39,342 nucleotides of DNA, from the sequence record OL362275.1. One strand, 5' to 3'. Within the stretch, counting starts at the first letter, position 1. Each line of letters starts with the position of its first letter. The notes beneath the pieces were generated by a model. It searched no databases. It was not told the DNA's origin and saw nothing but the letters and a program-made list of their open reading frames with translations. A program made the position numbers and the translations under genes. Positions 1,052 to 5,620 of this stretch are shown here, piece by piece. This DNA is from Escherichia phage HC12.

Positions 1052-1061
1052 GAGTGATTAA

Positions 1062-1106
1062 CTACAGGTCGTTAGACTGATAGCGGCCTGACTGATAGTC
1101 ACTAAC
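1062..1106 (+). promoter_or_regulatory. Early intergenic hairpin element, RNase III-type processing site candidate
   Basis: CTACAGGTCGTTAGACTGATAGCGGCCTGACTGATAGTCACTAAC, second copy of the CTACAGG...GGCCTGACTGATAG...TAAC element, immediately upstream of the ocr-like gene. Confidence 0.4.
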
Positions 1107-1134
1107 ACATAATTAACTTTGAGAGGATATAACT

Positions 1135-1641
1135 ATGGAACGTAATGCTAACGCATACTATGAGCTGCTGGCTGCAACCGTTGAGGCATTTATCGAGCGT
1201 ATTCAGTACGACCACCTGACTCAAGATGACGACTACAGCACTGCGCTGCATGAGGTCGTAGACGGTCAGGTTCCACACTATTACCACGAGATTTTTACGG
1301 TGATGGCTGCTGATGGTATAGACAACGAGTTCGAAGACTCTTGGATGATACCTGAAACCAAGGACGTAACGCGTATCCTACAAGCTCGCATCTATGAGGC
1401 GCTTTATAACGATGTGTCTAATAGCTTGGATGTAGTCTGGTTTGAGGATGAAGAGGCAGACGAAGAGGATGAATATTGGGTAGTTGACGCTAAAACAGGC
1501 GCAATAATCATGCAAGCTGTAGCTCTTGAGGTCGCTACTGCATGTGCCAAGGTTAACTATGCGGCAGGTCGCCACCTGAAGGTGGAAGACATCAATGATA
1601 ACGTAGTGTTCGACCCTGCGGCTGAGGACTGCGAGCGATGA
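1135..1641 (+). CDS. ocr: Ocr-like DNA-mimic anti-restriction protein (gene 0.3 homolog) with C-terminal extension
   Basis: Strongly acidic. Core [45 protein letters not shown] aligns closely with T7 Ocr ([45 protein letters not shown]). Good RBS GAGAGGA. 168 aa versus 117 aa in T7. Confidence 0.85.
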   Translation: [168 protein letters not shown]

Positions 1642-1787
1642 TAACTTACGGTTTATGCCAGCACCACGTCACTAACGCCCGGCTTATGGTCAAGACCGGG
1701 CAGTTAAACCACGATGCGACTATGCGTCACCTGAAAGCGGTCTACGAGGGCCGCAAGCGTATACACGACAGTTTACACGCTAAGTGA
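1638..1787 (+). CDS. Hypothetical small protein (49 aa), start coupled to the ocr stop (ATGA overlap)
   Basis: Hand-translated ORF MITYGLCQHHVTNARLMVKTGQLNHDATMRHLKAVYEGRKRIHDSLHAK. Absent from the track (under 60 aa). No independent RBS. Confidence 0.3.
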   Translation: MITYGLCQHHVTNARLMVKTGQLNHDATMRHLKAVYEGRKRIHDSLHAK

Positions 1788-2938: not shown

Positions 2939-5620
2939 ATGAGCGTCATCTCTATTGACAAGCACGACTTCTCTGATGTGTCGAACGCCATTGAGCCGTT
3001 TAACCTACTGGCTGACCACTACGGGCAAGACCTTGCAGTCAAACAGCTTCAGCTTGAGCACGAGGCATACACTGAAGGCGAGCGACGTTTCATCAAGAAC
3101 CTTGAGAGACAGACTGAGCGAGGGGAACTGGCAGACAATCAGGTCGCCAAGCCTTTGATGCAGACTCTGGTCCCTAAGATTGCGCAAGCCGTCATGGAGT
3201 GGCACGAAGGCCTAGACGGGAAGCTGTCAACCTCGCGTCCTAGTGTAGCGTTCACCATGTTGAGCACTGAAGAGAAGGCCGTAAAGGACCGCTCTATGCG
3301 CATCTCCTGTGAGTCCGCTGCGGTTATCATACTGAAGGTCATACTCTCCAAGCTGGTCAAGCCTGAAGGGATACCGATTACACCGATGGCCTCCGCGATA
3401 GGTCGCACACTTGAGGACGAAATCCGCTTCGGTCGCATCCGTGACAAGGAGAAAGAGCACTTCAAGAAGGCGATAGCTGATAACCTGAATAAGCGGACCG
3501 GGGCGTCATACAAGAAAGCCTACATGCAAGCGGTCGAGGCGTCCATGCTGGAGCAAGGCCAACTGGAAGATGCGTGGGGGACTTGGAGTCCTACAGAGGC
3601 TGTCCACGTTGGCATCAAGATGCTCGAGATTGTCATCCAGTCAACACAACTGGTCGAGCTTAAGCGGTACGGTGCTGGCAATGCAGCGGCTGATGTAGAG
3701 ATGGTCCACCTGTCAGACTTCTGGGTCAAGAAGATGGCACAACGAGGATTCAGCCTTGCGGGTATAGCTCCAGTCTACCAGCCTTGCGTCGTTCCACCTA
3801 AGCCGTGGACTGGTGTCGTAGGCGGTGGGTACTGGGCCAAAGGACGCAGACCATTACCACTGATTCGCTTAGGGTCTAAGTCTGCGGTAGCACGCTACGA
3901 AGACGTGTATATGCCTGAAGTCTATGACGCTGTGAACATCATTCAGAATACACCTTGGAAAGTGAACAAGAAGGTTCTGGAAGTGGTGAACATGGTCGAG
4001 AAGCTGAACAACACGCCTATTGATGACATCCCTCAGATGGAACCGCTGAAGCCTGAGGACTATGCGGGTGAGACTGAAGAAGAACTCAAGGCATGGAAGA
4101 AGGCTGCTGCTGGTATCTATCGCCGCGAGAAGGCCAGACAGTCACGAAGATTATCACTGAGCTTTATCGTTAACCAAGCAAACAAGTTCTCTCAGTTCAA
4201 GGCCATCTGGTTCCCGTACAACATGGATTGGCGAGGTCGTGTCTACGCTGTCCCGATGTTCAACCCTCAGGGTAACGACATGCAGAAGGGCCTCCTGACT
4301 CTGGCAGTCGGCAAGCCTATTGGTGCTGACGGTTTCAAATGGCTGAAGGTCCACGGTGCAAACTGTGCGGGTGTCGATAAAGTCACCTTCGATGAGCGCA
4401 TCAAGTGGGTGGAAGACAACCACGAAAACATCATGGCTGCTGCTAAGGCACCGATGGATAGTATTGAGTGGTGGGGCAAGTTAGACTCTCCGTTCTGTTT
4501 CCTTGCGTTCTGCTTCGAGTATGCTGGCGTAATGCACCACGGCCTGTCTTACTCTTGTTCGCTACCGATAGCGTTCGATGGGTCCTGCTCTGGGATTCAG
4601 CACTTCAGCGCGATGCTTCGTGACCACATCGGTGGACATGCAGTAAACCTGACGCCATCCGGTAAGGTCCAAGACATCTACCGCATCGTGTCTGACAGCA
4701 TTGAGGAGGAGCTTAAAGTCCTGCTGATTAACGGCACTAACAACGAGATGGTCACTCACGAGGATAAGAAAACTGGTGAGATTACCGAACGTATCAAGCT
4801 GGGGACACGAGAGCTGGCCCGTCAGTGGCTGACATACGGTATGTCACGCAAGGTCACTAAGCGTTCAGTCATGACTCTGGCATACGGGTCGAAAGAGTAC
4901 GGCTTCGCAGACCAAGTTTACGAGGACATCGTGATGCCAGCGATTGACTCAGGGTCTGGCGCTATGTTCACTGAACCAAGCCAAGCGTCTCGCTTCATGG
5001 CTAAGATGATTTGGGAAGCTGTGAGTGTGACCGTAGTTGCTGCGGTTGACGCGATGAAATGGCTTCAGGGTGCTGCCAAGCTGCTTGCTGCTGAAGTGAA
5101 GGACAAGAAGACTGGCGAAATCCTGAAGCCATGCCTTCCGGTACACTGGGTAACACCTGATGGTTTCCCTGTCTGGCAGGAATACCGCAAGAAGGATACC
5201 ACTCGTCTGAACCTGATGTTCTTAGGGTCATTCAACATTCAGCCTACCGTCAACAGAGGTACGAAGAAAGAGCTGGACAAGCACAAGCAGGAGTCAGGCA
5301 TTAGCCCTAACTTCGTCCACTCACAAGATGGTAGCCACCTGCGGAAGACTGTAGTCCACACTCACCGCAAGTATGGCGTGATGTCATTCGCAGTGATTCA
5401 CGATAGCTTCGGGACCATACCTGCTGACGCTGAGTATCTGTTCCGTGGTGTCCGTGAGACGATGGTCGAGACATACCGCGATAACGATGTGCTGCTTGAC
5501 TTCTACGAGCAGTTTGAATACCAGCTTCATGAAAGTCAGCGCGACAAGTTGCCTGAGCTTCCGAAGAAAGGTAAACTGAATATCGAAGACATCTTGTCTT
5601 CAGACTTTGCATTCGCTTAA
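2939..5620 (+). CDS. 1: DNA-directed RNA polymerase, single-subunit T7-type
   Basis: 893 aa, colinear with T7 RNAP. Conserved blocks WFPYNMDWRGRVYAV, FDGSCSGIQHFSAMLRD, HDSFGT and C-terminal DFAFA. Specificity-loop region reads RLNLMFLGSFNIQPT. Confidence 0.97.
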   Translation: MSVISIDKHDFSDVSNAIEPFNLLADHYGQDLAVKQLQLEHEAYTEGERRFIKNLERQTERGELADNQVAKPLMQTLVPKIAQAVMEWHEGLDGKLSTSRPSVAFTMLSTEEKAVKDRSMRISCESAAVIILKVILSKLVKPEGIPITPMASAIGRTLEDEIRFGRIRDKEKEHFKKAIADNLNKRTGASYKKAYMQAVEASMLEQGQLEDAWGTWSPTEAVHVGIKMLEIVIQSTQLVELKRYGAGNAAADVEMVHLSDFWVKKMAQRGFSLAGIAPVYQPCVVPPKPWTGVVGGGYWAKGRRPLPLIRLGSKSAVARYEDVYMPEVYDAVNIIQNTPWKVNKKVLEVVNMVEKLNNTPIDDIPQMEPLKPEDYAGETEEELKAWKKAAAGIYRREKARQSRRLSLSFIVNQANKFSQFKAIWFPYNMDWRGRVYAVPMFNPQGNDMQKGLLTLAVGKPIGADGFKWLKVHGANCAGVDKVTFDERIKWVEDNHENIMAAAKAPMDSIEWWGKLDSPFCFLAFCFEYAGVMHHGLSYSCSLPIAFDGSCSGIQHFSAMLRDHIGGHAVNLTPSGKVQDIYRIVSDSIEEELKVLLINGTNNEMVTHEDKKTGEITERIKLGTRELARQWLTYGMSRKVTKRSVMTLAYGSKEYGFADQVYEDIVMPAIDSGSGAMFTEPSQASRFMAKMIWEAVSVTVVAAVDAMKWLQGAAKLLAAEVKDKKTGEILKPCLPVHWVTPDGFPVWQEYRKKDTTRLNLMFLGSFNIQPTVNRGTKKELDKHKQESGISPNFVHSQDGSHLRKTVVHTHRKYGVMSFAVIHDSFGTIPADAEYLFRGVRETMVETYRDNDVLLDFYEQFEYQLHESQRDKLPELPKKGKLNIEDILSSDFAFA

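Follow-up and report, generated by a model that had tools for sequence, protein, structure and literature searches.

The Ocr protein of Escherichia phage HC12 is a two-domain, K1F-type variant with an orphan accessory mini-domain behind its DNA-mimic body

Ocr is a textbook DNA mimic and one of the main reagents of research on phage defence, which blocks type I restriction-modification (R-M) and the bacteriophage exclusion system BREX, triggers the defence system PARIS, and binds RNA polymerase. The 39,342-nucleotide sequence of Escherichia phage HC12 (record OL362275.1), which was analysed at its full length and is referred to here as the window, contains an ocr homolog whose product is considerably longer than the 117-residue Ocr of phage T7. 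This raises the question of what the additional C-terminal residues are and what they may contribute to the function of Ocr. A preliminary description of the sequence had reported an open reading frame (ORF) of 168 codons that encodes an Ocr homolog with an extension, and had suggested that the extension might be a fused second anti-defence module or might alter the dimer of the mimic. The ORF is present exactly as described, starting with ATG and running as a single uninterrupted frame (for the coordinates of all features see Table 1). Our analysis identifies its product as a variant of the known Ocr that consists of two domains, whereby the second one is an orphan accessory domain that is not mentioned in the literature we found.

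By sequence homology, residues 1-104 are assigned to a bona fide Ocr DNA-mimic body. The Pfam model “ocr” (PF08684) matches residues 8-94 with 94 bits at a cut-off of 25 (E = 8.5e-27), PHROG 2568 (“ocr-like anti-restriction”) is matched with E = 3e-49, and T7 Ocr (PDB 1s7z, 117 amino acids) aligns to residues 11-113 with E = 1.2e-22, whereby the alignment ends where the acidic run DEEADEEDE ends. The Pfam score and the 1s7z alignment bear out the earlier statement that the first 115 residues align with T7 Ocr. In the AlphaFold2 (AF2) model of the full-length protein, the body has helices at residues 2-25, 35-59, 63-67, and 75-96, followed by the conserved motif VVWFE. The net charge amounts to -15 for residues 1-96 and to -10 for residues 97-113. 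Together with the position of the gene in the early region, near the left end and upstream of the phage RNA polymerase gene as in T7-like genomes, the profile score, the homology to 1s7z over the body, and the helical acidic fold place the protein among the Ocr proteins. The closest annotated relative is the Ocr of Escherichia phage 6925, which is 98.8% identical to the window protein.

Residues 115-168 (54 amino acids, WVVDAKTG...EDCER) are without a counterpart in T7 Ocr, which agrees with the approximately 50 extra residues announced by the preliminary description. They could be an artefact or a non-functional read-through, in which case the protein would stop near residue 117 and everything beyond would be due to a sequencing error or to a junk ORF fused not long ago. 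The preliminary description had itself pointed to a true stop near residue 117 or a frameshift as a danger to its interpretation, and neither is present. Two kinds of homopolymer frameshift alleles do occur in metagenome assemblies, one of which gives an Ocr of exactly 117 residues, as would be expected for an artefact. However, these alleles, which may be real or assembly errors, are rare and nested in the long-form family, and 71 phage records as well as at least 120 protein clusters keep the frame open past residue 117, even where identity falls to about 64-66%. Moreover, the median pairwise ratio of nonsynonymous to synonymous substitution rates (dN/dS) among nine long-form genes rises from 0.19 in the body to 0.31 in the linker and 0.43 in the extension. 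The last value is well below 1; the extension is therefore translated and under purifying selection, yet evolves faster than the body. According to the conservation tables, the extension is conserved to a degree comparable with the Ocr body. With the confident AF2 fold described below as a further point against it, a read-through artefact is barely credible, and the sequence comparisons rule out that sequencing errors or an overlooked stop near residue 117 are involved.

The long form of Ocr is common. A tblastn search with the 168-residue protein gave an Ocr match in 572 phage records, with at least 80% coverage in 71 of them. The C-terminal segment alone matched 70 phage records, including K1F at 64-66% identity, and all records in the subset that was inspected for taxonomy belong to Kayfunavirus. 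In a large protein collection, at least 120 clusters (90% identity) of proteins of 162-179 amino acids carry the extension. The gp0.3 protein of K1F, from a RefSeq-annotated phage record, is a homolog of 169 amino acids with the same two-domain architecture. The window protein belongs to the group formed by K1F gp0.3 and the “Ocr” proteins of Kayfunavirus, from which it shows no structural difference. The architecture has long been public as K1F gp0.3 in dozens of phage genomes and is not a new sequence. The preliminary description had also considered that the extension might be a common and already characterised tail of the Ocr family; the former holds true in the form of K1F gp0.3, whereas for the latter our literature searches found no account. 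In these searches, the extra domain of K1F-type Ocr was nowhere discussed, genome papers said “Ocr” and cited T7, and experimental work on an Ocr of the K1F type did not turn up. In some GenBank records the long-form ocr gene is annotated as “protein kinase” (e.g., ZH4, CY1, IME177, and LM33_P1), and in SHAK9454 and SHAK7854 as “similar to N4-like RNA polymerase”.

The AF2 models suggest that most of the extension is a folded unit. In the full-length model, which was based on a 67-sequence alignment and has a mean predicted local distance difference test score (pLDDT) of 74, a confident C-terminal domain stands behind a low-confidence acidic stretch. When the domain was modelled alone with a 39-sequence alignment, a pLDDT of 90.4 and a predicted TM-score (pTM) of 0.73 were obtained. 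The predicted order of elements is strand beta1 (114-118), strand beta2 (124-129), a helix (131-143), strand beta3 (148-151), and strand beta4 (157-159). On the basis of these models, residues 114-161 form a beta-beta-alpha-beta-beta mini-domain (about 6 kDa) that folds on its own, with a predicted fold that is a simple two-layer sandwich of strands and helix, a type used by many small phage inhibitors. Invariant or near-invariant positions are W115, T121, G122, L131, A134, Y142, G145, H147, V150, E151, D152, D155, V157, V158, D160, and P161. Both hairpins are nearly invariant, with the polar residues D118, T121, G122, H147, E151, D152, D155, D160, and P161 among the conserved ones, and so is the side of the helix that is buried (L131, A134, Y142, G145). 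The exposed face of the helix is fast-evolving and occurs in several versions across the family (EV..T..KDH, ND..I..KDL, YE..I..KEL).

The position of the segment behind an acidic stretch, together with its own acidic end, could hint at a lengthening of the acidic rod, by which Ocr would imitate a longer DNA. However, the 48 residues of the mini-domain sum to a net charge of just -2, compared to -15 for the body and -10 for the linker, and the mini-domain thus does not appear to be a continuation of the DNA-mimic surface. In addition, it is predicted to be beta-rich and globular and not a helical rod, and its best-conserved positions are mostly hydrophobic core and turn residues, with few acidic ones among them. 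An extension of the DNA mimic is therefore very improbable. The acidic stretch itself is a linker and not the end of the protein. Between the conserved WFE and EYW motifs, family members have anything from 1 to 19 linker residues, most often 8, and the linker differs between phages by repeat expansion and contraction. In CLB_P1 (L016) the linker is almost absent, with only a few residues between WFE and EYW, and in Mt1B1_P3 (L012) it carries the tandem duplication EEEDEKA-EEEDEKA. This range of lengths suggests that a fixed geometry of the domain relative to the Ocr body is not needed.

In order to find relatives of the mini-domain, databases were queried with the C-terminal segment alone or with the 39-sequence profile. 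The search with residues 115-168 alone, which the preliminary description had proposed, gave no significant match outside the two-domain Ocr family. Pfam yielded only sub-threshold noise (HTH_64, PepSY, LEA_3b, Kelch), PHROGs and PADLOC gave no match, and among the PDB sequences nothing was significant, the best match being a stretch of botulinum toxin C (E 0.024), followed by TFIIH p8 (E ~0.5). Foldseek against PDB and BFVD returned nothing with E below 0.02, and tblastn against plasmids no mini-domain match. In IMG/VR three domain loci were found, all on 39-40 kb contigs of T7-like size. A word-index search of 5.8 billion proteins led to two fragments only (P0001, P0002), both from frameshifted long-form genes, and a HMMER search of 1.84 billion representative proteins, which did not recover the two-domain Ocr family either, to two spurious matches to repeat proteins (P0123 with 2313 amino acids and P0124 with 600 amino acids). 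P0123 and P0124 match in several short repeated stretches centred on the region of residues 150-161, and a PDB match to cadherin-17 behaves alike. This region (positions 1582-1617), the best-conserved one of the mini-domain, also gave rise to the weak matches to botulinum toxin C and TFIIH p8. It resembles V.D.NDN.P.F, but a cadherin DxNDN calcium motif was rejected, as the resemblance lies outside a repeat context and is not strictly conserved. Since divergent family members have ENYNDV or ENYHDE here, the likeness is probably due to chance. Membership in the TFIIH p8/Tfb5 family was rejected as well because the profile match is not significant. The same applies to a metal site formed by C137, H147, and C166, since C137 is not invariant and the apparent conservation of C166 is confounded by the ribosome-binding site of the downstream gene gp0.4 that is embedded there. 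Apart from the frameshift alleles, neither a stand-alone mini-domain nor a fusion to a protein other than Ocr was found in the protein collections, IMG/VR, and plasmids. As far as sequence comparison can tell, the mini-domain is an orphan, which is assignable to no known family and restricted to the K1F-like phage group.

The question of how the segment behaves in evolution can be addressed with the variants of the gene. The short-form Ocr of phage phiHAO1-1 has 111 amino acids and ends with ...VVWFEAEEDCER, which are the same last residues as in the long form. Its ocr DNA corresponds to the long form minus 171 nucleotides in frame (57 codons, approximately positions 1457-1627 of the window), whereby a GAGGA microhomology marks the join of the deletion, and the last codons as well as the ATGA stop/start overlap are kept. 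Since short forms share the terminus of the long form, the extra segment presents itself as a 57-codon in-frame cassette inside the acidic tail and not as a terminal add-on. The final ocr codons, GAG GAC TGC GAG CGA TGA, hold the Shine-Dalgarno sequence (GAGGA, 1624-1628) and the ATG (1638-1640) of gp0.4, and it is probably for this reason that the terminal EDCE(R) is kept in every variant. In the lineage of Salmonella phage PRF-SP5 (20 records), Ocr has 127 amino acids and ends with ...SVVFDHAAAEDCE, and only ...VVFDHAAAEDCE is retained of the domain, a remnant of its last strand. The 3' part of this ocr gene is about 86% identical to the long-form phages and the 5' part 92.5% identical to an SP6-like phage, so that it is a recombinant.

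Further lesions were found, two of them in metagenomic relatives. One additional G in the GGG run at the junction of linker and domain splits the gene into a 117-residue Ocr, which has the length of T7 Ocr, and a separately called ORF of 59 amino acids, in which the domain is in frame with an ATG five codons upstream. The loss of one A from an AAAA run inside the mini-domain cuts the protein to 123 amino acids. Programmed frameshifting or slippage at these two runs was considered and rejected, as the runs are too short and no slippery heptamer is present. A deletion has also joined ocr to gp0.4 in the lineage of P0101 (L025-L027; read on 9 contigs). It runs from the RHLK codons of the domain (GRHLKVED) to those of gp0.4 (MRHLKAVYEG), equivalent to about 1570-1585 and 1718-1733 in the window, and the resulting protein of 167 residues consists of Ocr, most of the domain, and the tail of gp0.4, whereby the last hairpin of the domain and gp0.4 are destroyed. 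In addition, the divergent long-form Ocr P0117 (L020) ends with ...VVVYDPANQNEVYMEEIAIV (...EVYMEEIAIV), and this tail resembles the end of an unrelated ORF of 61 amino acids located 3' of the short-form Ocr of phiHAO1-1 (L002, 1003-1188), which reads ...SGVYDVYMEEIQVV (...DVYMEEIQVV). The tail of P0117 is more likely the result of another deletion or recombination between the domain and a downstream gene, judging from the sequences. The 61-residue ORF was also tried as a free-standing homolog of the domain and was rejected with an hhalign probability of 1.4%. Outside this group, the Ocr proteins of Przondovirus and Vectrevirus show about 80% identity over residues 1-97 and then continue with plain acidic tails. 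Overall, at least five independent lesions delete or disrupt the domain, and the Ocr body is intact in all of them. Thus, the domain is accessory and conditionally dispensable. As for the earlier proposal of a fused second module, its module part stands, given the pLDDT of the domain modelled alone, the low-confidence linker in front of it, and its gain and loss as a unit; whether an anti-defence role can be attached to it is weighed in the following.

The location of the domain within the Ocr dimer bears on its possible role. F54, A58, and V78 (precursor numbering), the residues of the T7 Ocr dimer interface, are conserved in the window protein according to the 1s7z alignment. In the AF2 model, the last long helix (75-96) has V78 at its beginning. 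Since the domain follows the other end of this helix, it should be located at the distal tips, away from the interface. The banana-shaped Ocr dimer would thus bear one copy of the domain on either tip, remote from the interface and outside of the DNA-mimic surface. The alternative proposal of the preliminary description, that the extension alters the dimer, is therefore unlikely, with F54, A58, and V78 conserved and the domain placed off the far end of the monomer. T7 Ocr without residues 99-116 is still active (PMC3439906), which suggests that the C-terminus is a permissive attachment site and that the domain should be dispensable for the classical action against R-M and BREX.

In our opinion, there is about an even chance that the mini-domain is a tethered protein-binding module, which gives Ocr an extra host target or contact that is useful in some hosts only. 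This is suggested by the non-acidic character of the domain, the invariant polar hairpin, the uncovered face of the sheet, and the tolerance of different linker lengths. The likeliest binding surface would be the polar beta3-turn-beta4 hairpin (H147, E151, D152, D155, D160) together with the sheet face that is not covered by the helix. The extra contact might constitute a second anti-defence or host-takeover activity, in addition to the inhibition of type I R-M and BREX through DNA mimicry, and a usefulness in only some hosts would account for the repeated loss. Several points weigh against such a module. In the literature searches, neither a binding partner nor a functional study of the mini-domain came up. 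Apart from the frameshift alleles, the domain was never found as a stand-alone protein, whereas a fully independent inhibitor should have at least some free copies; this favours a role dependent on Ocr. Its location at the tips is a deduction from the AF2 model and the 1s7z alignment. Furthermore, the search of 1.84 billion representative proteins missed even the two-domain Ocr family, presumably because the long forms are represented there by short Ocr proteins, so that its negative outcome is weaker.

The occurrence of the domain only in attachment to Ocr could also mean that it has no target of its own and acts in cis as an end cap, which on each tip changes the sites that are accessible to the DNA mimic. 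Open DNA grooves, such as those of the type I methyltransferase and BREX PglX, could still be bound side-on, and end-on insertion into closed channels would be hindered, so that the phage might evade abortive infection by systems that sense Ocr (PARIS) or an unproductive binding to RNA polymerase. The place of the domain at the end of the last helix, and hence at the distal tips, would suit a cap (1s7z alignment, AF2, and the T7 structure). In the complex of Ocr with RNA polymerase, one Ocr monomer “fits snugly into the channel” (PMC7064336), and AriA of PARIS has been proposed to bind Ocr in positively charged pores (PMC11464382). A recurrent loss would also be expected if the cap matters only where such sensors occur. 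On the other hand, with a flexible linker of 1 to 19 residues the domain hangs on a floppy tether, which would make a poor steric cap, and the strongly conserved polar hairpin suggests a specific contact instead of mere bulk. PARIS is, moreover, triggered by structurally diverse acidic proteins (PMC11464382), so that blocking of the tips may not stop sensing. Altogether, we consider an end cap, though the foremost alternative, rather doubtful. The more specific idea of a counter-counter-defence cap, by which Ocr still blocks type I R-M and BREX but escapes PARIS-type or other decoy sensors, is distinctly improbable; if true, the domain would be the first known “anti-sensor” module within an anti-restriction protein.

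It might also be that the role is a structural one only, in which the domain has no host target and stabilises Ocr, guards it from proteolysis, or pairs with itself and thereby joins Ocr dimers in larger assemblies. In the models, one side of the four-stranded sheet is left uncovered by the single helix, and uncovered sheets of this kind frequently pair. The weak profile matches to TFIIH p8/Tfb5 (E ~0.5), a small dimerisation module, point in the same direction, as does the fact that the Ocr body dispenses with the domain in several lineages. However, T7, SP6, Przondovirus, and Vectrevirus have Ocr proteins that are stable and active although they lack such a domain, and a fast-evolving helix face next to an invariant polar hairpin looks like a surface for a ligand or partner and not like a plain stabiliser. 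A purely structural role thus seems unlikely to us.

The two-domain Ocr and its mini-domain can be compared with several known systems. With T7 Ocr (gp0.3), the window protein has the four-helix body, the strong negative charge, the interface residues, the genomic position, and the neighbouring gp0.4 homolog in common. In contrast, T7 Ocr has 117 amino acids with a disordered acidic tail, whereas the window protein adds a folded domain of 48 residues; the beta-beta-alpha-beta-beta domain is likewise absent from the Ocr proteins of SP6, Przondovirus, and Vectrevirus. The T4 antitoxin Dmd and the anti-CRISPR AcrIF9, both small inhibitors encoded by phages, show 8-15% identity to the mini-domain with scores in the twilight zone; unlike the mini-domain, they are free-standing, and their targets (the RnlA/LsoA toxins and type I-F Cascade, respectively) have no known link to Ocr. 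In the case of the fold shared by ClpS and the C-terminal domain of ribosomal protein L7/L12, only approximately 42 of the 80-97 residues of ClpS can be superposed on the mini-domain, without a sequence match. ClpS and the L12 C-terminal domain consist of three helices and three strands, whereas the mini-domain has one core helix and four strands in 48 residues. Membership among the ClpS adaptors was rejected since their hallmark, a three-helix, three-strand core of some 80 residues with a pocket for N-degrons, is not present, which leaves a partial shared sub-structure only. Conceptually, the closest precedent for two anti-defence modules in one protein is the anti-CRISPR fusion AcrIE4-F7, in which each half reportedly also occurs free-standing and has a defined target, whereas the mini-domain of Ocr is without free-standing relatives or a known target.

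Table 1. Coordinates of the ocr gene of phage HC12, its parts, and neighbouring features in the window
Feature	Position	Strand	Basis or remark
Stable RNA hairpin just 5' of ocr, at the position of a T7-type RNase III site	1053..1103	+	Folding free energy (dG) -23.3 kcal/mol, z = -4.7
Shine-Dalgarno sequence GAGAGGA of ocr, 7 nucleotides 5' of ATG	1121..1127	+	Read from sequence
Coding sequence of two-domain Ocr (gp0.3, K1F type), 168 amino acids + stop	1135..1641	+	ORF list; homology
Ocr DNA-mimic body, residues 1-104	1135..1446	+	PF08684, 1s7z match, AF2 secondary structure, charge, dN/dS
Codon TGG (Trp70)	1342..1344	+	Gly in 120/121 family members; peculiar to this window
Acidic flexible linker DEEADEEDE, residues 105-113	1447..1473	+	Lowest pLDDT, <50 at residues 107-110
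Mini-domain, residues 114-161 (48 residues)	1474..1617	+	AF2 models, conservation, dN/dS 0.43, charge -2
GGG run at the linker/domain junction; +1 G in metagenomic relatives	1478..1480	+	Loci L003-L005, three sequencing runs
AAAA run inside the mini-domain; -1 A in other metagenomic relatives	1492..1495	+	Loci L023, L024, two runs
Short acidic tail AAEDCER + stop	1618..1641	+	Read from sequence; retained by short-form Ocr genes without the domain
T7 gp0.4 homolog, 49 amino acids, translationally coupled to ocr (ATGA overlap)	1638..1787	+	ORF list; PHROG 5058, E = 6e-28

The surroundings of the gene agree with those of a T7-like phage. The window represents the practically complete genome of a K1F-like phage of the genus Kayfunavirus, within the T7 family; it opens with the T7-type left end TCTCACAG and shows the T7 gene order, with the gene for the single-subunit RNA polymerase at 2939-5620. 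Unlike Klebsiella phage 5OI88, the window has no gene 0.7 kinase in the interval from ocr to the RNA polymerase gene. Orthologs of the window gp0.4 in the loci L004 and L021 match the Pfam family PF26807 (Phage_T7_GP04). Regarding transcription and processing, none of 200 shuffled sequences folds as well as the hairpin in front of ocr. A motif related to this hairpin in sequence (ctacaggtc...ggcctgactgatag) occurs at about 1795-1818 behind gp0.4, where the RNA fold is not significant (z = -0.98). From their sequences, the two flanking motifs resemble RNase III processing sites of the T7 type and would enclose an ocr-gp0.4 mRNA between them. Upstream of ocr, at 584-613, lies the site of the early region that best resembles a sigma-70 promoter (TTGACA, 18 nucleotides, TAGTAT; 10/12 matches). 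It is a candidate for an early promoter of the host polymerase, but the number of sigma-70-like sites in the early region is no higher than in shuffled sequence. Within the Ocr body, the window protein differs from its family at Trp70, a position at which T7 Ocr and the nearest relative, phage 6925, also have Gly (GGG instead of TGG in the latter). The residue lies in the loop before the last Ocr helix; it could stem from an error in sequencing or from adaptation in the laboratory, or it could be a functional or escape mutation.

For the phages concerned, these data mean that a whole genus of coliphages in therapeutic use (K1F, LM33_P1, CLB_P1, and others) carries a two-domain Ocr under the annotation “Ocr”, and that genes labelled “protein kinase” or “N4-like RNA polymerase” can be corrected to long-form Ocr. 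The natural in-frame deletion, frameshift, and fusion alleles constitute matched controls for the domain. If the domain binds a host protein, this would point to a novel anti-defence activity or to a novel means of tuning DNA mimics.

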